A stretch of 50,193 bases of DNA from a virus (IMGVR_UViG_2585427746_000005:1-50193); one strand, 5' to 3'. Shown: positions 6,845 through 37,540, counted from the stretch's first letter. Notes: generated by a model from the letters alone, not told the origin. Program-made: numbers and translations.

Positions 6845-8017
6845 TTATGCGCTGACGCGGCTGGCAAAATCGACCAGATAGCGATCGGTGATGCGCTGGC
6901 GCAGCATCAGATTTTCAAGCGGCGGCACTGGCGTATAGTCGTAGTCGATCGCCAGCTTCCCGGCTTTCAGGGTGTCCTTATCGTTCACCGACTCATCCAG
7001 CCAGCAATCACCACCAATCAGATAGCCCTGGTTAACCAGGCTGCGCATTTTGGCGCGGATACCTTCGATAATGTCGCGGGCCAGTGATGGATTCAGCGGC
7101 ATATCAACTGCCCACATATGCGCTTCCGCCATGGTGTCAGCCAGCACCTGCGCCGTGCGGGTGTAGTTTTCAAACTGGAACAACGGATCATCACTGAGGC
7201 AACGGGAACCCCAGAAGCGGAAACCGTCTTTACGAATGAGGGTGGTGATATCGTTCTGGTTAAGCAGTCCCGCATCCGTTGCCGGGTCCTGCAGATCCCA
7301 GGACACATCAGCGGACAGGCCAGTGACGCCATTCACGCCCACGTTAGACAGGGTTTTGTGCCAGCCGGTCTGCTCGTCAATTTTGGCGCGCATACCCAGC
7401 GCGCGAGCGGTGGCAAAAGCCGTCGCATCCGCCTGCAGCACGGTGTCAAAGTTGATAAAGTCAGGCCAAATCAACATCCCTTCACGCTGGCTGAAATTCT
7501 CACGATAGGCGATCGCTTCCTCCACCGTTTTGCAGCCATAGGCGGAAAGGTAAGCGAACCCGCGCAGGCTCTGCGCCACGCTAAGCAGTTCAGTGGAAAC
7601 CGCCTGCGTATCATGGCCCGGCACACCGAGGATGCGCGGCTTAACGCCCAGCTGCGACTGCGCAGACAGCAGCGCTTTGATGCCCGTTTTTTTACCGTCT
7701 GCCGTGACGCCGCCGATAATATTGGCGGTGGTTTCAGCTTCGGTTTCACCCTGGGCCACGCGGATAACCACGGTGACAGGCTTTGCCTGATCTGCAATAG
7801 CATCCAGCGAGCGGGCCAGCGTGCCGGACTCGCCTGCTTTGCCGCTGGCGGTCAGCACATCGGTCAGAAGGACCGGCTTATTGAGGGGGAACACGGACGC
7901 ATCGGCATCATCGCCGGTGCAGACCATGCCCACGATGGCAGTGCTCACCGTGGTAATCGTTCGGGTGCCTTCGTTGATTTCTTCAACGCGCACGCCGTGG
8001 TGGTAATCCTGAGCCAT
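6845..8017 (-). CDS. Contractile tail sheath protein (P2 FI-like)
   Basis: 390-aa ORF, ATG with GGAGA SD; first gene of the FI-FII-E-T-U-D operon. Confidence 0.9.
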
Positions 8018-8089
8018 AAGGCATTATCTCCGGTTGACAGGGATGCCTTATGTTCTGGTTGATACGCACGCGGCGCACGTTTTTCTGCC

Positions 8090-8107
8090 TGTGCCATCAC
8101 TGACACA
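8090..8107. promoter_or_regulatory. Candidate Ogr-dependent late promoter dyad TGT-N12-ACA upstream of FI
   Basis: TGTGCCATCACTGACACA, centred about 81 nt upstream of the FI ATG. Confidence 0.45.
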
Positions 8108-8119
8108 ATAACGGGGTTT

Positions 8120-8677
8120 TCAGCCTGGCTGGCTGGCGGGAAATTTCTTATACAGCGTGGAAATACCCACATCAAAAAGCAGCGCCACGCGCTGACGTGT
8201 TTCACCTGCAGCCAGTAACCGCCCGGCCTGCGCCCATTGTTCCTGTGACAACTTTGGACGGCGCCCGCCGATTCTCCCCTGCGCCCTTGCTGCTGCCAAT
8301 CCCGCACGGGTTCTTTCCACAATCAGTTCACGCTCCATTTCAGCCAGGGCGCCCATAATGTGGAAGAAAAAGCGCCCCATGGGTGTCGAGGTATCAATGC
8401 TGTCCGTCAGACTGCGGAAATTAACAGCCCGCTGCCGCAGTTCCTCCACGAGAACCACCAGATGCCGCATACTGCGCCCAAGTCGATCAAGCTTCCAGAC
8501 AACCAACGTATCTCCCGGTGACAGGGTTTTAAGCAGCTTTTTTAATCCGGGGCGGTCCGATGTTTTACCGCTCATTTTGTCCTCAAATATCAGTTCACAT
8601 CCTGACCGCTCCAGCGCATCACGCTGCAGTGCCGTGTTTTGTTCATTTGTTGATACGCGTATATATCCCACTTGCAT
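8120..8677 (-). CDS. Site-specific DNA invertase (Hin/Gin/Cin/Pin family serine recombinase)
   Basis: MQVGYIRVSTNEQNTALQRDAL...LVVWKLDRLGRS...GRRPKL...ISTLYKKF is near-collinear with Hin/Gin; start moved to ATG with GAGGGA SD; abuts an inversion site. Confidence 0.9.
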   Translation of the reverse strand: MQVGYIRVSTNEQNTALQRDALERSGCELIFEDKMSGKTSDRPGLKKLLKTLSPGDTLVVWKLDRLGRSMRHLVVLVEELRQRAVNFRSLTDSIDTSTPMGRFFFHIMGALAEMERELIVERTRAGLAAARAQGRIGGRRPKLSQEQWAQAGRLLAAGETRQRVALLFDVGISTLYKKFPASQPG

Positions 8678-8731
8678 CTGCTTTCCCTCACGCAAAACCC
8701 CGAATGATGCCAGCCAGGCAGAAAAACTGCA

Positions 8732-8757
8732 TTTTCTTAAACGTTGGTTTAAGCGAA
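8732..8757. repeat. Left inversion site (hix/gix-like)
   Basis: TTTTCTTAAACG-TT-GGTTTAAGCGAA; half-sites resemble the TTATCCAAAACC consensus; core TT. Confidence 0.6.
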
Positions 8758-9423
8758 TCGTTTTCAGGCCGGGTTTTACGGGTAAAAAAAATTACTGCCA
8801 GCCAGTTATATGAATGGCCTGATGATGTTGATGATATCGACGTAACCATTGTCGCCGGTGGTGGCGGTGGAGGCGCCGGGGTATCCGTTCCTGTGGGGTA
8901 TTGTTCTGCTGGTTCAGGTGGCGGCGCCGGTGGTTCGGCACGCTCACGGTATAAGCGCGGGGATGTACCGCTCGCTATTCAGATAGAAATTGGTGCAGGT
9001 GGTAAAGGTGGTATTGCGGACGGCGCACAACCGACCAGCGGCGGCAATACAAAATTTGGTGAGCTTATGCTTGCTGAAGGGGGAGCAAGAGCCGCAAACG
9101 GTCTTGCCTTTCAGCAGACTGGCGCGTCTATGTTGATAGGCAATGGCGGCGGCGGTGCAGCGTATGGCGGCAATCTGTTTTCCAGTCGTGGAGGCTCAGG
9201 AACGCCAGCGGTATTCCTCAGCAATGGCTATGAGTCTGGGGCCGGTGGCGATTCAGTGTTTTCTTTCGGCCCACCGCCGTTAACAACAAATATCAGCGTT
9301 GCCGGTTATGACGGTGTGGATGGTGCTGGCGGCGGCGGTGCTGTCATTATTGAAAATACCGCCGGTCGAGATGGTGGCGATGGTGGCGATGGTGTTTGCC
9401 TGATTGTGGAGTATTCAAAATGA
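8746..9423 (+). CDS. Alternative tail-fibre C-terminal segment (silent orientation, no own start codon), glycine-rich
   Basis: Open frame continuing from the left site core in the same codon phase as H; gains an N-terminus only after inversion; stop overlaps the tfa' start (ATGA). Confidence 0.55.
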   Translation, partial: GLSESFSGRVLRVKKITASQLYEWPDDVDDIDVTIVAGGGGGGAGVSVPVGYCSAGSGGGAGGSARSRYKRGDVPLAIQIEIGAGGKGGIADGAQPTSGGNTKFGELMLAEGGARAANGLAFQQTGASMLIGNGGGGAAYGGNLFSSRGGSGTPAVFLSNGYESGAGGDSVFSFGPPPLTTNISVAGYDGVDGAGGGGAVIIENTAGRDGGDGGDGVCLIVEYSK

Positions 9424-9806
9424 ATCGTTTTGCGATTATTGATAAAGGAGTTGTGATTAACATTGTCAGCGCTATCAACCCTGCTGATTTAAATTACCCG
9501 GCATCGGATGTTATCGACATTGGTGATATGAGTATTGAGCGCGGATATATTCTTTCTGGCGATGAGTTTTCAGCCCCACCGAAAACAAAAGATGAAGAAA
9601 TCTCCGCTGCTTATCAGTTAAAAATGAGGCTAACATCGACCGCGAGAGAAATTGTTTCGACTTTACAGGCTGATTTATTACTAGGTGAAATCAGTGATGA
9701 AGATAAAGCGCGCCTGATTGAATGGCGCGCCTATCTGAAAAAAATGGAAACTATTAATATTCAGGATGCGCCGGGCATTAACTGGCCTGAGTCACCGGCG
9801 GTGTAG
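9420..9806 (+). CDS. Tail fibre assembly protein (alternative cassette)
   Basis: C-terminus ...RLIEWRAYLKKMETINIQDAPGINWPESP matches the conserved Tfa C-terminal motif. Confidence 0.75.
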   Translation: MNRFAIIDKGVVINIVSAINPADLNYPASDVIDIGDMSIERGYILSGDEFSAPPKTKDEEISAAYQLKMRLTSTAREIVSTLQADLLLGEISDEDKARLIEWRAYLKKMETINIQDAPGINWPESPAV

Positions 9807-10380
9807 GCCATACGGGTTTTGTTGTATCAACTCGCATCAGCAAGACCCTGTATTTTATCCATTCAGCCAGCGCTGCGGTTTCTCCTTTCGTCGCGATTCC
9901 TGAGTTAACAGCATCCTGTCGCCATGCTATTTCAGAATCAGCCGCACCGCGAAGTTGTGATTTTTTCCGCTCAGCATCGGCTACATCCGCCGCCTGTTGA
10001 GCATCTGCGTCCGTCACCCACTCGCTACCGTTCCATATGTCATATGCGGTTGTCGGGGGTAATGTTGTCACGCCGTCAGCATAATCGCCCAACGCACCAA
10101 CAACAGATGATTTCCCGGTCATTGTGTCATACACAATATCCCCTCGATGGTCAGCGACATACATCCAATCGCTCAAATCAGCATTACGACAAATAGCAAA
10201 CCCATCTTTATTTTTGGGTGGCGCATCTGTGCATGAACTGGCTGGAATGCCAACACCTAAGGGAAGATATTCAACCGAACGGCCAATATATTCGCACGTC
10301 GTTTTATCATAGTTATAAACAATAATATTCCCTGCTGTTGTGGCAATATCATTTGCGCCTAAAATAGCGTCATTCATCAT
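9778..10380 (-). CDS. Tail fibre assembly protein (currently expressed cassette)
   Basis: C-terminus ...ALAEWIKYRVLLMRVDTTKPVWPTPP; ATGA overlap with the H stop. Confidence 0.8.
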   Translation of the reverse strand: MMNDAILGANDIATTAGNIIVYNYDKTTCEYIGRSVEYLPLGVGIPASSCTDAPPKNKDGFAICRNADLSDWMYVADHRGDIVYDTMTGKSSVVGALGDYADGVTTLPPTTAYDIWNGSEWVTDADAQQAADVADAERKKSQLRGAADSEIAWRQDAVNSGIATKGETAALAEWIKYRVLLMRVDTTKPVWPTPPVTQAS

Positions 10381-11489
10381 GCAGCCCTCACAATATAGTT
10401 AAATGCAATATTACGCGGCCTTGCGTAGCCCATATATTGAACACCATCGCTATTGCTCGGCGCTGAAGTCCATGTTGATGTCGCTTGAATGGCTCTTGCC
10501 CTTATCAAATCGCCATTGTTTTCACTTTTGTCCCATCCGAGGAGCGCAAGGGTATTCAGTGAAAACTGAACAATATTATCAACAGCGGATTCCCGTTCCT
10601 GAACTAAATAAGAGCCCTTTTGCCATGACAGCAATGTACGCCCACTATCAACACCACGACCATCATCCCATCCACGGATAAACTCACTGCGCAAATCAGG
10701 TAATTTCAGCGCTGGATAAGCCAGTGCCAGTTTCGGGTATTGCTGCGCAGTAAACGCAGCACCATTACATTTCAGCCACCCAGCCGGTGCTGTTGCGGTA
10801 GGCCACGGAACAGGGACGCCAACGGGCAACGCCGAGCCATCTCCCAAACCAAGGTATTCGAGAACGCCTGCGGCATCCGTTTTGCCCAGCATCAAACGAA
10901 TAAAATCACTCAAATCAGCCAGCGCGGCTGCCTTCTCCGCAGTGAAATATGGAAACTTTCCTTTAGCCGGTTTCAGCTCCGCCAGCGCGGTCAGGGTATC
11001 GCTTTTCTGCTGCCGGGTTTCAATGAGGTTATCGACATAGCTACGCGTTGCCAGCACTACAGATGGATCGATTTTCAGCGTGATGTTATCGGTGCTACTG
11101 GTGATCAGCACCATGCGCACGGTCTGCGTGCGTCCGCTACCTTCAACGAGCTGCGGCTTATAGCTTTCCGGGCAATTCCCCACGGCAATCAGCGCGCCGG
11201 TCTCATCGAACAGTCCAACCTCGCGAATCCACCAACCGCCCTCAGTTTCAGGGATCACTTGTTCAGCAATAATCTGGCTACTGTTCTGTGGATCGATATA
11301 AAGCATATTCAGCGCGGCGCGGCGTTTTTCTGCAACCAGCGCCGTCTGTTTTGCGTCAGGCGTCGGCAATGCTCCACCGCCGTCACCCACCGCCATCTGG
11401 GTAATTTTCAGAGGGATACCGAGCGCGGCAGCGCTTGCCAGCTTCGCCGCCCCAATATCCGTCATCAAGGTGTAAAATTTTGCGCTCAT
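10377..11489 (-). CDS. Tail fibre protein H (constant N-terminus plus current variable C-terminus)
   Basis: 370-aa ORF; inversion site falls in codons LEYLGLGD; C-terminal part has the WLKCNGAAF...LPDLRSEFIRGWDDGRG fibre tip motif. Confidence 0.85.
   Translation of the reverse strand: MSAKFYTLMTDIGAAKLASAAALGIPLKITQMAVGDGGGALPTPDAKQTALVAEKRRAALNMLYIDPQNSSQIIAEQVIPETEGGWWIREVGLFDETGALIAVGNCPESYKPQLVEGSGRTQTVRMVLITSSTDNITLKIDPSVVLATRSYVDNLIETRQQKSDTLTALAELKPAKGKFPYFTAEKAAALADLSDFIRLMLGKTDAAGVLEYLGLGDGSALPVGVPVPWPTATAPAGWLKCNGAAFTAQQYPKLALAYPALKLPDLRSEFIRGWDDGRGVDSGRTLLSWQKGSYLVQERESAVDNIVQFSLNTLALLGWDKSENNGDLIRARAIQATSTWTSAPSNSDGVQYMGYARPRNIAFNYIVRAA
10839..10864. repeat. Right inversion site (hix/gix-like) inside tail-fibre gene H
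   Basis: ATCTCCCAAACC-AA-GGTATTCGAGAA; inverted relative to the left site, 17/26 identical when aligned, identical codon phase. Confidence 0.6.
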
Positions 11490-12097
11490 GGGTTCACTCT
11501 CATTGTGTCGATATCGTGGACCGCGCCGCTATGGTACGCAGTGCCGCCGGAAACGATGGTTTCATTGATATACGGGTAAATCGTAATTTCTTCGCCGGTA
11601 TAGGTCGCGGCTCCGAGGTAATACGGGCCACTGGTTTGCAGATTGATAGACATGCCGATCAGATGGCGGCTGCACGGTTTTGCATCACTAATCAGGCGCT
11701 CAAGCTCCAGATAGGTTTCCTCTGTGATCCCCTGGTCCTGCACACCTATATCCAGCCGGAATGTGCCCGGCTGCTCACCGTTTTGCCACCACTCAATAAT
11801 GCGGATCAGGAAACCAAACGGCTCAACCACGCGACGAACGGCGCTGAGCGTCCCTTTGTGCTGATGAATATAGAAAGCATCCTGCACTACCCGGCGTTTT
11901 GTACTTTCGGCCCAGCTTTCGTCCCAGCGGTCCACTGAAAAAGCCCAGGCCAGATAAGGCAGAAAGCGGACCGGACACGTTGCCGGGTTCCACAGGTCGC
12001 GCAGTGGAACCTGCAGATCAGAAATGCCGCTGCAGGTCAGAGCCAGGCGACGCTCAAGGGCAGATGAGCCAGGCGGCAGAAGCGTGTTGTTACTCAT
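11486..12097 (-). CDS. Baseplate/tail protein I (P2 gpI-like)
   Basis: Start moved to ATG (MSNNTLLPPGSSALERRL) with GAGG SD, 4 nt after the J stop. Confidence 0.75.
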   Translation of the reverse strand: MSNNTLLPPGSSALERRLALTCSGISDLQVPLRDLWNPATCPVRFLPYLAWAFSVDRWDESWAESTKRRVVQDAFYIHQHKGTLSAVRRVVEPFGFLIRIIEWWQNGEQPGTFRLDIGVQDQGITEETYLELERLISDAKPCSRHLIGMSINLQTSGPYYLGAATYTGEEITIYPYINETIVSGGTAYHSGAVHDIDTMRVNP

Positions 12098-14033: not shown

Positions 14034-14927
14034 ATGTCCCTTTATAAATACGTTTCAGCCACAACGCTCGAATACATTCTGAACGGTTCAATACGATTCA
14101 CTCAACCCGGAGGATTTAACGACCCATTCGAATTAGCTTTAGAAGTTTACAATCCTACCCTTAATGAAGATGAAAAAGTAAATATACAATTTGATGTTTT
14201 ATCGCAAGATGATTTAATTAATAAATACCTTCTTGATAAGGACTTTCAAGACGACAATTGTAGTGATGTTTTTTCTCGCGAACTTATAAGTAACCTAAAC
14301 AAAGAAATAGGCATACTATGCTTATCTAAAAATTCAGACTCCCATCTAATGTGGGCTCACTATGCCGATGAGTATAGCGGTGCTGTCATAGAGTTTGATG
14401 AAAACCATGAATATTTCTCTGGCTTAACTGAAGTTAAATATGAAAAAGATCGGCCAATTATTCACATGAATTATTTCCTAGAAAATAAAACGATCCCAAT
14501 TTCAAACCTATGCATCAAGCCGGACATTTGGAGTTACGAGAAAGAATTCAGAATAACAAGGTCATTAAGAGACTGTAAAAAAAACAAAGCCAAAACTAAA
14601 AAGTTCGATATTTACACGAACGAAATACCTCTTGATGCCATTAAAACCGTTACACTTGGCGAGCGATGCTCTCTAGAATCTGCTCGCAATACATATCATA
14701 AGCTTAAGAATACCCATGTTGCCTTGAGTATAGCTGCATTAGCAAATTGGAAGTATGAATTCCGTTATGAACCAATAAAATTTAATGAGCCAATCAAAAA
14801 TATGTCCCCGATGATCTCACCACGCACAGCGGAGATTTTTGCAGAAGATAAATCCTCGTTAGGTGAAGTTGCAAGATACATCCTCCAAAAACACCCAATG
14901 AGCAAAATAACTAAATGGCGATTATAA
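14034..14927 (+). CDS. Moron: DUF2971-like protein
   Basis: 297-aa ORF, ATG start; N-terminus LYKYVSATTLEYILNGSIRFTQPGGFNDPFE resembles the DUF2971 signature; AT-rich, opposite strand to the late operons; 3' end overlaps S by 6 nt. Confidence 0.7.
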   Translation: MSLYKYVSATTLEYILNGSIRFTQPGGFNDPFELALEVYNPTLNEDEKVNIQFDVLSQDDLINKYLLDKDFQDDNCSDVFSRELISNLNKEIGILCLSKNSDSHLMWAHYADEYSGAVIEFDENHEYFSGLTEVKYEKDRPIIHMNYFLENKTIPISNLCIKPDIWSYEKEFRITRSLRDCKKNKAKTKKFDIYTNEIPLDAIKTVTLGERCSLESARNTYHKLKNTHVALSIAALANWKYEFRYEPIKFNEPIKNMSPMISPRTAEIFAEDKSSLGEVARYILQKHPMSKITKWRL

Positions 14928-23391: not shown

Positions 23392-24087
23392 CTAAAACCT
23401 ATCAATTTCCAAACATGAAATGGCATCATTGAAAATTGAAAAATGCTCATCAGGAACCACTGCAGAAGCCCCACTAGTTAATTCAAAACTAATCTTTGAA
23501 TCAAGGTAAAGCCCTCCAGCTTTTATTTTATCGAGCTTGAATTCGCCATCCCCAACAAAACTCTTCAAATCATGCAAAGCATCGCCACTAGAATTCAATT
23601 CCAAACATGCTCTTGTTTTGTCAGTAACAGGAAGATTTGATACCTTCACTTTTGAAATACCAAACACCTTTACGCCAAAATTTTCTCGAACGACCCTCAT
23701 GAAAGCTTTAAGATCAACGGTTAAATTTCCATAAGCAACATTTAATCCTTCAGCCTGAGATAAAAAATCGATGAAAGGTTTAACTGTTTTTGGCGGATTG
23801 TAAAAAGTTAACAGACATATCTTATTGCTGAGGGTTTGGATAGAAAAACTAATCTGATCAAATACAACCCTTTCGAATTCCAGCACCTCACCAAATGGAT
23901 CGGCAACCGGCTCTAAAACAACAGATTTTTTATTGAAAGTTGCAGCAATACCATTATGAATGGTTTCATACTTAGTAAAGCCAGCACCAATAGCATCAGA
24001 ATAAGGCGTGTTTTTGATAAAATCAAAGACAGCCTCAGGGCTGGTTCTGATTTTCAATCTCATCCACTTCAATCTTAATTGTGACAT
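23392..24087 (-). CDS. Cargo operon gene 3, hypothetical protein
   Basis: 231 aa from ATG with AAGGAG SD; AT-rich; no motif recognised. Confidence 0.7.
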   Translation of the reverse strand: MSQLRLKWMRLKIRTSPEAVFDFIKNTPYSDAIGAGFTKYETIHNGIAATFNKKSVVLEPVADPFGEVLEFERVVFDQISFSIQTLSNKICLLTFYNPPKTVKPFIDFLSQAEGLNVAYGNLTVDLKAFMRVVRENFGVKVFGISKVKVSNLPVTDKTRACLELNSSGDALHDLKSFVGDGEFKLDKIKAGGLYLDSKISFELTSGASAVVPDEHFSIFNDAISCLEIDRF

Positions 24088-24106
24088 AGCCACTCCTTAT
24101 GATGTA

Positions 24107-25171
24107 TTAGCTGATTTCCATTATAATAGAATAAGCTCTATTTTCAATTAGTTTATTGAATCGCTCAGCTTCTCTACCAGAGAGTTTTTGCGGCTTACTG
24201 AAATATTGTCCATTTGCCTTATACTTTCTGACTCCCTTAACCAAATATGAAAAATTAGTACAATTAAGAGGATCACCAAATTGGGCCTCAAGCTCAAATA
24301 TATCTGGATCAGCCAAGTTCTCCTTGACCTTCCATTTTATTTTCCAAATATAGAACCCTCTATCATAAAGATCACTTAATTCATCAGATTTAAGCACCCC
24401 CTCCCCCTTAAGTGATGCCCTAGACACGTGCACCCCAGTTTCGGTGTTTCCATCTTCAGCCTCAATAGTTTCAGGCTTAGGGTGATATACATAAGCATCA
24501 GTAACATCCAGTAACTCATAACCATCAAGTGTACGGATTAATCTATCGAAGAATAAAGTTCTAACATCAGCAGATGTATTGTGAGAGAGAGAAATTTCGT
24601 TTAATTTTAAATCAAGGTTACTATCATCCGCTTGCTCGTCCTGAATAGCGCTGATGTGCCCAAGTAAGAGTCCCTCGTAATCTTCAAGGTTTTCATTATC
24701 TGGACGACGGATACTGTAACCATCATCAAGAGGCTCAATTTCAATTAACGCCTCTTTATTAATAGCCTGTTTGAAATCACTTTTACCATAATTAGTTGAA
24801 AGATACCTGATATTAATAAGAACTCGAGGCCCATCTACGATTATTTTACAATAATCATCCTGATCGGTAATTTCTTTCTTAAGTTTTTCTGCGGCATCTA
24901 TAATACCTTTCTTATCTATACCAGTCTCAATTCTTACACATGTAAATTTTTCGGTCCTTGTCTGGCCACCTAAAAGGGTTGCAATTTTTTGATGCTCGTA
25001 ATAATCATGAGTCATTCGAGAATAGTTTCTTGCCAATTCTTTTCGAGGTGTTTTTTTACATATTATTGTCCCCCTCTCTAAGAAAAGATCTTGAATTTCA
25101 TTTAGAGTAATTTGCTTTTGGTTTAAAGCATCATATAAAGCTTTATCAGTTACGCTGTGAATATTTTTCAT
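24107..25171 (-). CDS. Cargo operon gene 2, hypothetical protein
   Basis: 354 aa from ATG (MKNIHSV...) with GGGAG SD; ATGA overlap with gene 1 stop; no motif recognised. Confidence 0.7.
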   Translation of the reverse strand: MKNIHSVTDKALYDALNQKQITLNEIQDLFLERGTIICKKTPRKELARNYSRMTHDYYEHQKIATLLGGQTRTEKFTCVRIETGIDKKGIIDAAEKLKKEITDQDDYCKIIVDGPRVLINIRYLSTNYGKSDFKQAINKEALIEIEPLDDGYSIRRPDNENLEDYEGLLLGHISAIQDEQADDSNLDLKLNEISLSHNTSADVRTLFFDRLIRTLDGYELLDVTDAYVYHPKPETIEAEDGNTETGVHVSRASLKGEGVLKSDELSDLYDRGFYIWKIKWKVKENLADPDIFELEAQFGDPLNCTNFSYLVKGVRKYKANGQYFSKPQKLSGREAERFNKLIENRAYSIIMEIS

Positions 25172-26232
25172 TTCGGCTCCCAAGAAATAACTTCTGCAGA
25201 GAAGAATTCTTTTACTGTAGACACAACTTTAACGTCTAAATCTTCAAGCCTCTTTTTAGCTTCTTCATCTAACCCATACTCATGTGCATATTTTTCAACT
25301 CCACGTTGAAAGTGTGAGAGAATCCTCTCATCTTTTTCTCGATAAGCCAGCCTTATCCTAATTTTATTTATACCATCAAGAATTTGATAATTTGACAAAA
25401 TATCTAACAAATAAAAAAATTCATTGTCGCTATTACCTTTTTTGTTGTAATACACAACAAACCCTTCTGGATAAACCTCCTCCTCTATACCTTTAGCTCT
25501 ATTATATTTATGAACAGCGCCATGTTTGATAATCATGAAAGGTGATGACAAGACTTCTATAGTAGCTGGAAGATATTTTTCAGTCACAGCAACCTTATGA
25601 AAAGTCAATTGAGGGTAATAGAATCCATATTCTTCATCAGGAAACTCTTTCTTAGCAATCAAATCATTCATATCATTCGTAATTGCCAACATATAATTAA
25701 TCAAAAATGGATCGATTATATGAATTTGCTGACCTGAAGATAAAGGAATCTTTTCTAAATTGACAGCCTTATCCCTTCTTCCTTTAGTAGGTTTAGGAGG
25801 ATTAAAAAAATCATAAAAATCATGCTGCAACTGATTATCATGATTAAAAACAAACAACAAACCTCGAACTTCACAGTCGATTTGAGAAAAATTATACTTT
25901 TCTGACCACTCAGGACTATACCGAGCACATTCAATAGTTTTTGCTAATGACTCCAGTGCAGATTCTATTTTTGACGCATTTATTGAACCTGCTTTATAAC
26001 TTTTTAAATCAGTATTTAAATAAATGACCTTGTTTAAATATGGATCTTTATAACTAAAAACAACATCTACAGGATGCGTATGCTTCTGTTTCTTACCTTC
26101 GGGCTTATGTTTAGCCTCATCATCACAAAGGAAATCTCGGTCGCAGGGGCCATGCTGCTGCCACTTAAATCGACTCAGTAGATCCTCAGATATGCGTTTT
26201 GCCAAATCTTCAATAGGGCCGTTCTCTGCCAT
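25168..26232 (-). CDS. Cargo operon gene 1, hypothetical protein (possible PD-(D/E)xK-like motif)
   Basis: 354-aa ORF, ATG with AAGGAA SD; HPVDVVF...IYLNTDLKSYK could be a D...(D/E)xK nuclease core but this is unverified. Confidence 0.7.
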   Translation of the reverse strand: MAENGPIEDLAKRISEDLLSRFKWQQHGPCDRDFLCDDEAKHKPEGKKQKHTHPVDVVFSYKDPYLNKVIYLNTDLKSYKAGSINASKIESALESLAKTIECARYSPEWSEKYNFSQIDCEVRGLLFVFNHDNQLQHDFYDFFNPPKPTKGRRDKAVNLEKIPLSSGQQIHIIDPFLINYMLAITNDMNDLIAKKEFPDEEYGFYYPQLTFHKVAVTEKYLPATIEVLSSPFMIIKHGAVHKYNRAKGIEEEVYPEGFVVYYNKKGNSDNEFFYLLDILSNYQILDGINKIRIRLAYREKDERILSHFQRGVEKYAHEYGLDEEAKKRLEDLDVKVVSTVKEFFSAEVISWEPK

Positions 26233-27399: not shown

Positions 27400-29862
27400 T
27401 CAATACCACTGCCGCCATTTGTCATCTTCCTGCAGTCGCTGGTTCCGGTAAAAAAGCCGCAGGCCAGCGCCAGATGGGATACTGCCACCTCGCAGAAGCA
27501 AATCGATCTCCCTGTCACCGCAGTCAAAGCCCCTGGACTGCAGCTCATACTCCAGCTGCAGACGCTGCTGATCGCTGATTTCCTGTTTATAGCCTCTTCG
27601 GCGCTTCGGTTTTACCAGCCGCAGACGGGTGTTTAACTCACGCAGTTCCTTTTTCCCCATTCCATGCAGGTATTCCTGCAGTGTTTGGTCATCCATGGTC
27701 GTTATATCAGGTGCAGCTGGCGCAGTTTTCGCCCCTGATTCGTTCAAATTTTCCACAAGGGGACAGTTATTGCCACGAGTCCAAGGGGCGCTAGCGCCCT
27801 GGTCGGCTGACGCCTCCTGCAGGTCAACGTCAACGGCCTTACGAACCATTTTCCATTTCACCGCGTGCGTACAAATCCGCCCTTCCTGAATAGGGGACCA
27901 GACGCCATAGATACGGATACCATGATCGCCATAAGTACTCGGCTCATCGTTCAGCTCGTAGGCTGTTCTGACCAGATGGTGTTTACGAGGGACCAGCACG
28001 CCGCCTTGCGCCATGACGTAAGTGGCAAAGCAACCGGCATCTGCCGCAGCCAGCACAGCATCAAGACGCGGATTGCCGATAACAGGCCGCGCATTTGCAA
28101 GGGCCACCAGAATCTCTGGCGTTAGTTCAGGTTTCCCCGGTACGGGTTTTAATGGCGGAAGGTCGCGTTTAGCCTGGCCCGCCAGCAGTCGCAGCTCACG
28201 GTAAGCCTGGCGGCCCGGAATACCGAAGAAGCGGAATTGCTGGACGCGATGCAGTGATGCCCAGGCGTTCACGTTCTCCGCGTTATCACGCAATGATTTG
28301 CCGGTTTCCTTGCTGACTTCATTAGCCAGGCCGCGCCCATCAATATTCTTACTGATGTATTTAGCGATGTAGCTGGTTGGCGTGCCTTTACGCGGATTGA
28401 TTAGCTCAGACTTAAAGCGCGGGCCGGTATTGTTTCCCAGCTCCTCGCGGTCCTCACGAATGGCAAACTTGCGCAGCAGCTCCGTGATCGCTTTGCGGTG
28501 TTTCTTGCGCATAAAGCACAGCAGGTGCCAGTGCACAGTGCCATCATGATGAGGCTCAGCGACTCGCACCCCGTACCAGCGCAGCCCGGCTTTATGCATG
28601 GCCTTACGGAATGCGGCGAACGTATCAACCAGATAATCACTGCTCTGTCGCACTGTAGCGCTGGTCCATTTCGGGTTTGGTCTGCCATTGTTGAGCGTGG
28701 CGTGGAAGCGTGACGGGCAAGTGATGGTATAAAACACGGCACAGTCGCCGCGCATTTCCGCGATAAGCTCCAGCCCTTTAACACAGGCCATCATTTCGTT
28801 ACGGCGGTGCGCCGGATTGCTGGCGCTGGCGTTTACCACATCCTCTAAATCCAGCGTGTCGCCCTGCTCATTGGTCAATTCGTGTGAGCGGAAAAACTCC
28901 AATGATTTACGGCGCTGTTCGCGCTTATGGATCACTGCTTCATAGCTGACATATGGCGACGCCTTTTTATTTACCAGGCACACTGCGCGCAGCTGCTCCT
29001 CGCGCCACTCACAGCGCATCTGCCATAATTTGCGATACCACCAATCCGCGCACAGCATACGCGCCAGCGAGCCGGGAATAAGCTCATAGGGCACAGGCTT
29101 GCGGCGGCGTTTCTTACGTCGCAAACGCTCAAACGCTGGCGGGATAACATCAAGGCGCATCGCTTCCGCTGCAACCAGTTCCCACGCCTGGCGGATTTCT
29201 TCCGGCTTCACTTCGTCAGTGGAATAGAGATCACCGCAGGCAGCTTCCAGACACATGCTCATATGAGCCGCAACCAGCGTGGACAGGCGTTTGACCTGAT
29301 CCTGATTCATTTCAGGCAGAACCAGCAGCCCTTCCAGCCCTTCATGGCTCGCCATGAATCGGAAAGAAGCAGACACCTGGCTATCACGCGCACGCGCCAG
29401 CCGTTCAAGGCATGGCCTGACGGTTTCACGCAGATAACGGGAATATGCCTGCGGACGGCCCAGACTATGGAAGTATTTAATACGCTCAAGCAGGGGTTTG
29501 CTGATGTGTGATGGCTCGGCGCTTACGTCTGCCAGAACCACCAGATCGGGATTGACTCGCTGCTGCTCGCGGGCCATTTTGGCGTGGCTGATCAGCCGGT
29601 CCTGCTCCATTTCACGCAGAACTGGATCACGGGCTTCGTTATAAAAATAGCGTTCCCAGACCTCATCACTCAGTTCCTCGCGACGCAGCCGGTCCTGCTC
29701 ATTGTCAGCGGCATACAAAGTGATCAGGTTTGAAAGCGCAGATACCGGCGCAACTTCCGCCGGGTCCGTGTATGGGTTAATCGCTTTTGGGGTTTTGTTC
29801 CAGGCAAAAGCAGCGGCGGCATCATGTACGCCGCCGTGGTTTTTAACATCGTGATCGCTCAC
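27400..29862 (-). CDS. Replication initiation endonuclease A (P2 gpA-like)
   Basis: 820-aa ORF with GTG start overlapping the Dam stop; size and position typical of P2 gpA. Confidence 0.85.
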
Positions 29863-30800
29863 GCTTGCGCCTCATCACTTATTTGATTCGCCGCGGCAGA
29901 GCCTAGATGGCAATAGTGCCATCCCTCAGGATGGCTAGTGCTTCGACCGTATCGTTCACAAACGATCCGAACCTCCTCGCCAGGGCCAGCAAGATCAACG
30001 CCATGCCAAAGAGGCGGTATCGACACTGCGATGATTTCAGCTGCAGATTTACCTTCTCCGGCAGCCACGCCCATGCTGCGTTTTGCATTGATGCAATTGC
30101 GGGTAAAGTTGCGATAAAGGGAGCGAGTCAGGGGCGTATCGCTATTGGACACGACGACCGGATGACCTTCTGATGTGCGACGTTCAAGAATAGACGCCAG
30201 ATGATACTGATCATCCTCGGTAAATCCGTCAGTGTGGTAAGTAGAAAATGCACCGTCATACGGAGGGTCGCAGTAGATAACATCCCCCGACTGCAGCATT
30301 GCCAATGTTTCCTCATAGCTGGCGCAAATGAAGGTGGCACGCTTTGCCTTTTCGGCAAATGCACGTATTTCATCAACGGGCAGATAAGGTTTTTTGTAAT
30401 TACCGTACGGGACGTTAAACAGGCCGCGCTGGTTATAACGGCATAACCCGCGATAACAATGGCGATTAAGGAAAAGAAAATAAGCCGCCTTGTCCATGTA
30501 ATCCAAAGGCGCAGTATTAAAATACTGTCGGCATTTATAATAGGCTTCTTCCGTTGTGAACTTAGAAAAAACTCGCTCAGCCAAGTGAATAAATCCGTTA
30601 ACATCATCTTTAATTGCTTGATACAGATTTATCAGATCAGGATTAACATCTGCGACAAGATAATGAGGATAGTCTGTCGCCATCATGACAGCGCACGAAC
30701 CCGCGAAAGGTTCAACAAGGCGCTGGCCTGCTGGCAGATGCTTTTTCAGCTCCGGCATGATGGCTGTTTTATTGCCAGCCCATTTCAGGATAGTGCTCAT
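29859..30800 (-). CDS. DNA adenine methyltransferase (Dam-like)
   Basis: [11 protein letters not shown]...LVEPFAGS...DPPY... matches N6-adenine MTase motifs I and IV. Confidence 0.9.
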
Positions 30801-33940: not shown

Positions 33941-34969
33941 ATGACCATCAGAAAGCAGCCAAACGGAAAATGGTTGTGTGAATGCTACCCGAACGGGCGA
34001 GACGGCAAGCGTGTGCGCAAACAATTTGCGACGAAAGGCGAGGCCATAGCATTCGAAAACTTCACCATGGATGAAGTAAACAAAAAGCCATGGCTTGGTG
34101 AGAAGGAAGATCGTCGGCGCTTGTCAGAAGTAATTGAGCAATGGCACTCACTCTACGGGCAGACGCTTGCAGATCCCAAACGCCTGATGGCGAAACTTAA
34201 AATTATCTGTAATGGTCTGGGCGATCCCATCGCTTCAGAGCTGACCGCCGGTGACTTTACGAAATACCGCGAAGCACGGTTAAAAGGTGAGGTGCGAAAT
34301 GAAGATGGCGCGCTTATGTCACCAGTTAAGCCTCGCACGGTAAACCTTGAACAACGCAACCTATCATCCGTGTTTGGCACACTGAAAAAGTTGGGCCACT
34401 GGTCAGCACCCAACCCACTCGCCGGTTTGCCAACATTTAAAATCGCAGAAGGTGAACTGGCGTTCCTGACACCGGAAGAAATTAAACGCCTGCTGGATGC
34501 CTGCGCTGATTCTCAAAGCCCCAGCCTGCTGATGATTGCAAAAATATGCCTGGCAACTGGTGCACGCTGGAGTGAAGCCGAAAATCTGCAGGGCCATCAG
34601 TTATCGAAATACCGGATCACCTATACCAAGACTAAGGGCAAGAAAAACCGTACCGTGCCGATATCTCAGGATCTGTATGATGAACTTCCCAAGAACAGAG
34701 GGAAGTTATTCACCCCGTGCAGAAAAGCTTTTGAGCGTGCAGTAAAACGGGCAGGTATTGAGCTGCCTGAAGGCCAATGCACTCACGTGCTGCGTCATAC
34801 GTTCGCCAGTTATTTTATGATGAATGGCGGAAACATACTGGTATTAAGAGATATTCTGGGCCATGCCGATATAAAAATGACGATGATTTATGCACATTTT
34901 GCACCTGATCATCTAGAGGATGCAGTAACAAAAAACCCTTTACATGGATTAAAATGGACCTCACCATGA
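33941..34969 (+). CDS. int: Tyrosine integrase (P2/186 Int-like)
   Basis: 342 aa with C-terminal ...HVLRHTFASYFMMNGG...LGHADIKMTMIYAHF (R..H..Y catalytic signature). Confidence 0.9.
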   Translation: MTIRKQPNGKWLCECYPNGRDGKRVRKQFATKGEAIAFENFTMDEVNKKPWLGEKEDRRRLSEVIEQWHSLYGQTLADPKRLMAKLKIICNGLGDPIASELTAGDFTKYREARLKGEVRNEDGALMSPVKPRTVNLEQRNLSSVFGTLKKLGHWSAPNPLAGLPTFKIAEGELAFLTPEEIKRLLDACADSQSPSLLMIAKICLATGARWSEAENLQGHQLSKYRITYTKTKGKKNRTVPISQDLYDELPKNRGKLFTPCRKAFERAVKRAGIELPEGQCTHVLRHTFASYFMMNGGNILVLRDILGHADIKMTMIYAHFAPDHLEDAVTKNPLHGLKWTSP

Positions 34970-36144: not shown

Positions 36145-36180
36145 ATTTTTGATATATTGAAGTTCAGTGAAGTCTATCAA

Positions 36181-36212
36181 GCCCGCATGGAACCAGCCTT
36201 GCGGGCTTTTTT
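36181..36212 (+). terminator. Rho-independent terminator downstream of the displaced ssrA 3' end
   Basis: GCCCGCA ... TGCGGGC stem followed by TTTTTT. Confidence 0.55.
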
Positions 36213-36310
36213 ACGTCTATAGTAGTCTACCGAGAATTGCTAGAATCTACTCGTTATGGCACCCTTTTTGGGACCCAACACAAAGGGTCCAAAACATGAG
36301 GGTCCCAAAC

Positions 36311-37540
36311 ATGGCAAAAATCGCTAAGAAGCTCACTGACACTGAAATCAAAAGCACCAAACCTGCCGAGAAAGAGGTTAACCTTTTTGACGGCGATGGT
36401 TTGCTCCTGCGAATCGCCCCCTTAGCGAAGGGAGGAAAGAAAAATTGGTATTTCAGATATGCAGTGCCTGTGACCAAAAAGCGAACTAAGGTGAGCTTAG
36501 GAACCTATCCTCACCTTACACTTGCGAAGGCACGAGCTTTACGTGATGAGTACTTGTCGTTGCTTGCAAATGGTATAGACCCACAAGTTCATAACACCCA
36601 CAAAGCCAATGCCCTTAAGGATGCAACGGAACATACATTTCAAGCAGTAGCCAAGAAGTGGCTTGATGAGAAAGTCAAAACGTCAGGCATCTCCCAGGAT
36701 CATGCTAACGACATCTGGCGAAGCCTAGAGAGAAATATCTTTCCAACGTTGGGTGATACCCCCATTAAGGAGATTCGCCCTAAAATGCTTAAACAGCATT
36801 TAGACCCCATAGAAAAACGAGGTGTCCTTGAAACACTTCGCCGCGTCATATCCCGCCTGAATGAAATTTTCCGCTATGCAGCAACAGAAGAACTCATAGA
36901 ATTCAATCCGGCTGACAACCTGGGGCAACGGTTCAGCAAGCCAAAAAAACAGAATATGCCAGCATTACCCCCTTCCGAACTCCCCCGCTTCCTGGTTGCT
37001 CTAAACAATGCTTCTATCCGTTTAGAAACAAGGCTACTGATTGAGTGGCAACTTCTCACATGGGTTCGCCCTGGTGAAGCTGTTCGCACAAGATGGTCAG
37101 ATATTGATATAGAAACCAGCATGTGGAACATCCCGGCGGAGTTTATGAAAATGAAGAAGCCTCACAAAGTTCCACTGAGCAAAGAATCTTTGCGAGTCTT
37201 GGATTCAATGAAAGCCATCAGCGGGCATAGAGAGTGGGTTTTTCCCAGTATCAAAGCTCCACTCAATCACATGCATGAACAAACAGCTAATGCGGCTATA
37301 ATCCGTATGGGCTTCGGAGGTGAGCTTGTAGCTCATGGTATGCGATCAATCGCTAGAACGGCGGCTGAGGAGTGTGGCAAGTTTAGAACTGATGTCTTAG
37401 AAGCCGCCCTTGCCCACTCGAAAAAAGATGAAATAATTGCAGCCTACAATCGTGCAGAGTATCTCACAGAACGTGTGGTTCTCATGCAATGGTGGAGTGA
37501 CTATGTTTCGTCTCAAAAATACAAAGTTATTGCCGCATAA
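36311..37540 (+). CDS. P4-type tyrosine integrase (IntA-like)
   Basis: Start moved to ATG MAKIAKKLTDTEIKSTKP...; N-terminal arm-binding-like segment and C-terminal catalytic domain. Confidence 0.9.
   Translation: MAKIAKKLTDTEIKSTKPAEKEVNLFDGDGLLLRIAPLAKGGKKNWYFRYAVPVTKKRTKVSLGTYPHLTLAKARALRDEYLSLLANGIDPQVHNTHKANALKDATEHTFQAVAKKWLDEKVKTSGISQDHANDIWRSLERNIFPTLGDTPIKEIRPKMLKQHLDPIEKRGVLETLRRVISRLNEIFRYAATEELIEFNPADNLGQRFSKPKKQNMPALPPSELPRFLVALNNASIRLETRLLIEWQLLTWVRPGEAVRTRWSDIDIETSMWNIPAEFMKMKKPHKVPLSKESLRVLDSMKAISGHREWVFPSIKAPLNHMHEQTANAAIIRMGFGGELVAHGMRSIARTAAEECGKFRTDVLEAALAHSKKDEIIAAYNRAEYLTERVVLMQWWSDYVSSQKYKVIAA

Follow-up and report, generated by a model that had tools for sequence, protein, structure and literature searches.

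Tail-fibre host-range switches that work by DNA inversion are well known, and their mechanism is textbook matter. In Escherichia coli, prophage e14 carries an invertase system of the same kind (Pin). In the C segment of phage P1 (invertase Cin) and the G segment of phage Mu (Gin), a serine invertase encoded outside the segment acts at 26-bp sites with a central TT, the invertase gene harbours an enhancer in its 5' part, and a constant fibre N-terminus is combined with alternative C-termini, each with its own chaperone (S/U and S'/U'). Whole-genome sequencing by Goldberg et al. (2014) revealed that segments invert in two P2-like prophages of enteropathogenic E. coli (EPEC) E2348/69, in which an invertase and inverted repeats give rise to alternative tail-fibre carboxyl termini; one locus was reported as phase variation, and at the other all four variants coexisted, the alternative forms being present side by side in clonal cultures (PMC4272514). 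A 2024 preprint describes the Z/fun hotspot of P2 as a frequent location of invertases that come with inversion of neighbouring genes.

The locus described here shares the features listed above for P1 and Mu apart from the enhancer, which is predicted in its case. It lies on a 50,193-nt stretch of viral DNA (IMGVR_UViG_2585427746_000005; hereafter the window), which holds a complete E. coli prophage of the P2-like type, inserted beside ssrA. In this prophage we see, with high confidence, an invertible tail-fibre cassette of the Cin/Gin/Fin type. A first-pass annotation, made from the sequence alone, had proposed a Hin/Gin-family invertase gene next to a segment bounded by two inverted 26-bp hix/gix-like sites in the same codon phase, whose inversion would exchange the C-terminus of fibre protein H and its tail-fibre assembly chaperone (Tfa) for a glycine-rich C-terminus and a second Tfa. 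The analyses reported below uphold this proposal in its individual parts, with the features at the coordinates that it had given (Table 1). The switch itself is real and probably active, and that inversion has happened in nature can be stated plainly.

The latter follows from the occurrence of both orientations in public data. The predicted 438-aa fusion of the constant part of H with the glycine-rich tip is found letter for letter in public databases (P0001 = KEL40608.1 / WP_032300241.1, E. coli; exact-sequence look-up), the 370-aa form of the window orientation is likewise present in a public collection (KEL56253.1), and a variant of the fused form that is at least 90% identical (P0003) is encoded on 36 contigs. 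Contigs were found by look-up of the second chaperone, Tfa', which is encoded in either orientation; those designated L002 and L005 are flipped, and L001, L003 and L004 are unflipped, as is the window. Contig JOQQ01000002.1 of E. coli 5-172-05_S3_C1 agrees fully with the window in its fetched stretches of 13-14 kb. L002, an 85.7-kb metagenome contig, carries the same prophage with flanks that are 99.98% identical to the window in BLAST (one mismatch in 6,331 bp; in the other flank a single 1-nt gap in 5,962 bp), and only the block 8741-10852, itself 99.9% identical, is inverted. One single-nucleotide difference in 6.3 kb and one 1-nt indel in 6.0 kb mean that, measured by sequence divergence, the flip took place very recently. 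The gene order of L002 is accordingly I, H' (438 aa, Phage_tail_fib plus Gly_rich_2), Tfa', inverted Tfa, inverted Collar open reading frame (ORF), recombinase and sheath. Its breakpoints overlap at 8741-8750 and 10846-10852, and at both junctions the sequence is an exact hybrid of the left and right sites (TTCTCGAATACC-TT-GGTTTAAGCGAA and ATCTCCCAAACC-AA-CGTTTAAGAAAA), which confines the exchange to positions 13-19 of the 26-bp site, central TT included. Serine invertases cut at the central dinucleotide of their site. The first-pass annotation had held that a switch would be refuted if deep long-read data from an invertase-proficient strain only ever showed one orientation; we find the flipped state in an otherwise 99.98% identical prophage, and the exact fusion protein in NCBI.

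As the full-length flipped copy comes from a short-read metagenome assembly, one might suspect an assembly artefact, or else RecA-dependent recombination between the inverted repeats instead of site-specific inversion. We regard either as extremely improbable. The repeats share only 7 exact bases in their centre and 17/26 overall, which is far below both the k-mers of the assembler (contig name: k127) and the needs of RecA, so that misassembly and RecA recombination both lack credibility as causes. In addition, L005, a second and independent assembly of the run that yielded L002 (ERR2359769; Logan versus ENA), has an identical flipped junction, the fusion protein is also encoded by isolate genomes at NCBI, and the exchange interval contains the central dinucleotide, the cut point of serine invertases.

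Site-specific inversion is further supported by the crossover sites themselves. The left site (TTTTCTTAAACGTTGGTTTAAGCGAA) is located 55 bp upstream of the invertase start codon, at the beginning of the silent glycine-rich frame, and the right site, given as its reverse complement (TTCTCGAATACCTTGGTTTGGGAGAT), lies within H. The two agree at 17/26 bases; TTGGTTT, their identical 7-bp centre, contains the central dinucleotide TT. When up to three mismatches are allowed to a degenerate hix consensus, it matches the 50,193 bp at two places only, the left and right sites (shuffle expectation 0.01; 0/100 shuffles with at least two matches), and a scan of the window with a half-site position weight matrix (PWM) ranks them first and second (22.3 and 18.0), the third hit scoring 13.4 at position 25336, 14 kb off. 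Independent of the hix/gix sequences used in the first site comparison and the half-site PWM is the comparison with cix, for which the P1 genome record annotates cixL, cixR and the crossover points. Relative to the 26 bp centred on the cixR crossover, the right site is identical at 21/26 and the left site at 20/26 positions, with the same central TT; this is the alignment to known invertase sites that the first-pass annotation had put forward as a check. Multiple-inversion systems with more than two fibre variants (shufflon-like arrangements such as the R64 shufflon, Min of p15B or the three-site EPEC prophage) are known in P2-like E. coli prophages (PMC4272514), and one might be envisaged here as well. 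Permissive consensus and PWM searches nevertheless return two sites only, the third PWM score being 13.4 against 18.0 and 22.3, and the segment holds just two tip-plus-chaperone modules; we thus give such a system hardly any credence, and a third crossover site or shufflon in the window is ruled out by the consensus and PWM searches.

For the two-site cassette, inversion leaves the reading frame intact. In H as in the glycine-rich frame, the second and third positions of a codon are formed by the central dinucleotide, and in-silico inversion of the segment creates one uninterrupted frame for a 438-aa H' that consists of H residues 1-213 and the glycine-rich domain, joined as ...EYLGL|SESF.... 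The flip thus exchanges the Collar-type C-terminus and the 200-aa Tfa for the glycine-rich C-terminus and the 128-aa Tfa'; the constant N-terminus, identical in both orientation states, fits in frame to either C-terminus, and each is directly followed by its own chaperone gene, whose start overlaps the stop of the fibre frame as ATGA. Upstream of the left site (8560-8745, plus strand) the glycine-rich frame is likewise open, reaching into the oppositely transcribed invertase gene, and a stand-alone 239-aa protein is annotated there at NCBI. Most likely, this stand-alone protein is an annotation artefact of the silent orientation and not an expressed gene; no promoter signal showed up for it.

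A side aspect of the crossover site is its coding content. It encodes a conserved xLGL peptide, EYLGLG in the window and NLGL or VGLG in homologues P0025 and P0027-P0029, and the motif recurs in all invertase loci compared (see below). The recombination site thereby also serves as a conserved linker on the border of the variable fibre domain, which eases the exchange of modules between fibres.

The invertase leaves little doubt about its family. It comprises Resolvase (E 2.5e-51) and HTH_7 (E 3e-13) domains according to Pfam, shares 79% identity with P1 Cin, aligns to structure 3uj3 (Mu Gin) over residues 1-183 (E 8e-86) and contains the active-site serine motif YIRVSTNEQ (GYxRVSTN being conserved versus Gin). 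Its closest relatives among phage records are those of Fels-2 (Fin) and SEN8, both 84.7% identical. The P1 record annotates the Cin enhancer at nt 19-90 of cin, and the homologous stretch of the window, at a distance of roughly 85-155 bp from the left site's centre and almost invariant at both ends in the DNA alignment, is predicted to be a Fis-dependent recombinational enhancer. Among codon pairs for the same amino acid, codon identity is 0.51-0.66 at codons 9-40 versus about 0.36 at codons 41-184, in a comparison of five diverged invertase genes (window, Fels-2, P1, L009 and L012) in which the pairs are not independent and protein conservation in the same stretch is a confounding factor. The excess of synonymous conservation at codons 9-40 would fit an extra constraint at the DNA level and is supportive in this sense.

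Several points weigh against an active host-range switch. L004 and L005, the site-crossing Logan contigs, are each in one orientation, and the two orientations stem from different samples or assemblies. L002, the sole full flipped copy, has a 1-nt deletion that frameshifts the invertase near codon 49 (L002 8646 = window 8531, GCTGCTTAAAACC -> GCTGCTAAAACC), the gene being called as 86 aa only; Such a copy may be locked in nature, unless the deletion stems from an assembly error. The same strain name, E. coli 5-172-05_S3_C1, is attached to KEL40608.1 and KEL56253.1, but their accession numbers are about 15,600 apart, so that they may come from different assemblies. A promoter/terminator scan of 7900-11700 gave counts at or below shuffle expectation, and the logic of expression leans on knowledge of the P2 operon. 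Finally, the putative difference in host range between the two tips is deduced from homology. The single orientation of each site-crossing contig and the frameshifted invertase, together with the Fels-2 annotators' labelling of the silent H' of that phage as a probable pseudogene, could be explained by a fossil cassette, formerly invertible and now inactive, with the orientations in databases representing old fixed states of separate lineages. We consider this very unlikely, if somewhat less so than the artefact and multiple-inversion explanations. The near-identical flanks of both states date the flip as very recent, the invertase of the window is full length with its catalytic motif, both sites have kept the same central dinucleotide, both alternative reading frames and both chaperones are intact, and fused and unfused forms are comparably common in cluster 1 (about 40 versus about 35 contigs).

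For the active switch, the following course of events can be envisaged. The serine invertase would bind the two inverted 26-bp sites, aided by the putative enhancer in its own 5' coding region, introduce staggered cuts at the central TT and rotate the 2.1-kb segment. The expressed half would be the one joined to the constant H codons 1-213 and driven by the late V-W-J-I-H operon. In the orientation of the window this would yield a 370-aa fibre with a Collar-type tip plus the 200-aa Tfa, and in the other orientation a 438-aa fibre with a glycine-rich, Pam3-gp24-like tip plus the 128-aa Tfa', the chaperone probably being translationally coupled to the fibre gene via the ATGA overlap in both cases. 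A population of lysogens would then release two kinds of virions with different receptor specificity. We infer that inversion depends on Fis and that switching takes place within a single culture.

Table 1. Features of the invertible tail-fibre cassette and the genes bordering it (coordinates of the window; Pfam E-values)
Feature	Coordinates	Strand	Remarks
Sheath gene FI	6845-8017	minus	beyond the invertase gene
Serine DNA invertase gene, 185 aa	8120-8677	minus	ATG at 8677; outside the invertible segment and transcribed away from it; a longer ORF version, 8120-8695, begins at a TTG upstream of this ATG
Predicted recombinational (Fis-dependent) enhancer	8588-8659		inside the 5' end of the invertase gene; inferred from P1 cin homology
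Left 26-bp crossover site, cix/hix-like	8732-8757	plus	central TT 8744-8745
Invertible segment	8745-10851		2,107 bp
Silent alternative H C-terminus Hv', 225 aa, glycine-rich tip	8746-9423	plus	Gly_rich_2 (PF21722), E 2.2e-13
Alternative tail-fibre assembly chaperone Tfa', 128 aa	9420-9806	plus	Caudo_TAP, E 1.6e-18
Chaperone Tfa of the window orientation, 200 aa	9778-10380	minus	Caudo_TAP, E 2e-28; Caudo_TAP_N
Variable H C-terminus of the window orientation, Hv, residues 214-370	10377-10851	minus	Collar, residues 224-271, E 9.7e-14
Right 26-bp crossover site	10839-10864	minus	central dinucleotide 10851-10852; H codons 209-217 (EYLGLG)
Constant H N-terminus Hc, residues 1-213	10852-11489	minus	Phage_tail_fib, E 4.3e-63
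Fibre gene H, whole, 370 aa	10377-11489	minus	after gene I in the late operon
Gene I	11486-12097	minus	

The two tips that would alternate on the fibre have unrelated folds, and it is the glycine-rich one in which the modest novelty of the locus lies. A PDB sequence search with this tip returned nothing significant (best E 0.13, on glycine linkers), which made a fold search necessary. Its AlphaFold2 model, built from a 13-sequence alignment, reached a predicted local distance difference test score (pLDDT) of 90.9 and a predicted template modelling score (pTM) of 0.85. The best Foldseek match was the fibre of cyanophage Pam3 (7ypx_A, E 1.8e-8, template modelling score 0.67, 25% identity), followed by tail-tip chains of the mycobacteriophage Bxb1 and, lower in the list, by the glycine-rich domains of ALK and LTK; these matches rest on a predicted monomer model. 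The tip is thus predicted to be of the Pam3 gp24 type, a TNF-like sandwich with a glycine-rich lattice, and to function in receptor binding. In the Pam3 fibre, the TNF-like plus glycine-rich unit forms the distal part, for which the authors propose a role in receptor recognition, and is folded with a Tfa-like chaperone (PMC9608196). Over its full length, Tfa' is homologous to the 135-aa gene products encoded behind Gly_rich_2 fibres in L014, a Mu-like locus, and in L012, indicating that tip and small chaperone travel together.

The glycine-rich tip module was found neither in sequenced phage isolates nor in complete E. coli genomes. A tblastn search with the tip gave no match among 50,697 phage records, where the low-complexity filter may hide weak matches, and megablast showed the module to be absent from 5,426 complete E. 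coli genomes; the stretch 8700-9810 matched only 49 bp around the site, in 2 genomes. With 8000-11600 as query, no complete E. coli genome covered at least 80% of the query, and in the phage collection only the constant part of H (~84%) and the invertase (~74%) were matched. In a collection of 5.8 billion sequences, 14 proteins were found at E <= 1e-5 among the 8,000 candidates sharing most words with the tip.

Contigs encoding four homologues of the glycine-rich tip served for a comparison of loci. L009, a diverged P2-like element, encodes an invertase together with a Collar-type H and a silent Gly_rich_2 ORF (L009 4393-6854), with no tfa genes in the 1.2-kb segment. L012 and L013 belong to a myophage with a different baseplate and combine an invertase with two alternative Gly_rich_2 tips (L012 4377-7370). 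Three Mu-like loci, L010, L011 and L014, encode a Gly_rich_2 fibre but lack an invertase. With the P1 and window sites as the basis of a PWM, exactly two strong inverted sites are detected in each invertase-bearing locus (scores 22.8-31.3) and no strong sites in the invertase-less L010 and L014 (best score <=8.6). In-silico flips of L009 and L012 are in frame and end in the EEYA terminus of the family. Collar-type and glycine-rich tips would thus be toggled in two P2-like elements (window and L009), and two glycine-rich tips in the L012 myophage. A tentative interpretation, which falls a little short of being probable, is that the glycine-rich tip (Pam3 gp24/ALK glycine-rich domain-like) and its 128-135-aa mini-chaperone form a mobile receptor-binding module that has repeatedly come under invertase control versus a different tip, and that both sequenced phage isolates and complete E. 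coli genomes lack. If this holds true, a P2-like coliphage would gain a second receptor, of a kind uncharacterised so far for enterobacterial phages.

Recognition of the switch corrects the annotation of public records, in which the silent half is named "glycine-rich domain-containing protein" or "hypothetical protein" and the fibre forms are listed as unrelated. Any host-range prediction for the prophage has to consider two tips. The glycine-rich tip with its mini-chaperone is compact and confidently modelled, and could serve the engineering of P2-type phages or tailocins once its receptor is known.

Concerning the backbone, the window encodes gpD, gpU, tape measure, gpE, tube, sheath, I, J, W, V, S and R, and furthermore lysis genes, gpL, gpX, a P2-family capsid protein, the gpO scaffold, terminases, portal, gpA, CI and an integrase. 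This gene set, together with its P2-type order, confirms the P2-type backbone named in the first-pass annotation, on which an invertase cassette is not unusual; the capsid, scaffold, terminase, portal, replication and integrase genes rule out a tailocin in place of a phage. The prophage is preceded by smpB (1-483) and the transfer-messenger RNA gene (698-1060). About 1.2 kb beyond the P2-like integrase gene (33941-34969), a different tyrosine integrase with an Arm-DNA-bind_3 domain is encoded (36167-37540), and the presence of two integrases suggests two elements in tandem at the ssrA site.

Other genes of the window point to cargo beyond the fibre cassette. Between the portal gene and replication gene A, three adjacent minus-strand ORFs (23392-26232; 233, 358 and 354 aa) lack a Pfam match and correspond to the PADLOC models Hp3, Hp2 and Hp1 (E 2e-9, 5e-39 and 2e-66); they are likely anti-phage defence cargo in a P2 hotspot, as judged from these model matches. 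Tail genes S and V flank an oppositely oriented ORF of 297 aa (14034-14927, plus), which matches DUF2971 and PADLOC PDC-S31, a candidate defence family (E 2e-39). Next to replication gene A, in the early region, a D12-class N6-adenine DNA methyltransferase of 313 aa is encoded (29859-30800, minus; E 1.4e-67).

Among the described systems, the fin cassette of Fels-2 in Salmonella Typhimurium LT2 (STM2702-STM2706) shows the same order of I, H, tfa, inverted tfa', inverted H' C-terminus, invertase (Fin, STM2702) and FI. Both elements have a P2-like backbone with the cassette in the slot between the fibre genes and FI, the slot in which SopEPhi has kept an invertase fragment. Invertase cassettes occupy the same position in SEN8, pro483, S164, Cartapus and Klebsiella P2-like phages (Peduoviridae), and invertases 80-85% identical to that of the window occur in many Peduoviridae records. 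What differs between the window and Fels-2 with its relatives are the variable modules, here a Collar-type tip and a Gly_rich_2 tip with a 128-aa Tfa, and the length of H (370/438 aa versus 524 aa in Fels-2). The EPEC E2348/69 loci, one of which has three repeats and four variants, belong to other prophages with different modules, and the window has two sites. The resemblance to the Mu G and P1 C segments claimed in the first-pass annotation is borne out by sites, enzyme and layout, with some deviations: in P1 the 3' end of cin abuts cixL, whereas in the window the site lies 55 bp from the 5' end of this gene's counterpart; the segment measures 2.1 kb versus 4.2 kb in P1; and, compared with P1 and Mu, the backbone is P2-like and the tip modules are unrelated to theirs. 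Pam3 gp24 with its chaperone gp25 (PDB 7ypx / 7yfw) shares the fold class and a small Tfa-type chaperone following the fibre, as in the window, where the domain is instead fused to a P2-type H N-terminus and placed under invertase control. Set against these systems, the window adds an instance of an established mechanism that differs in its cargo only.

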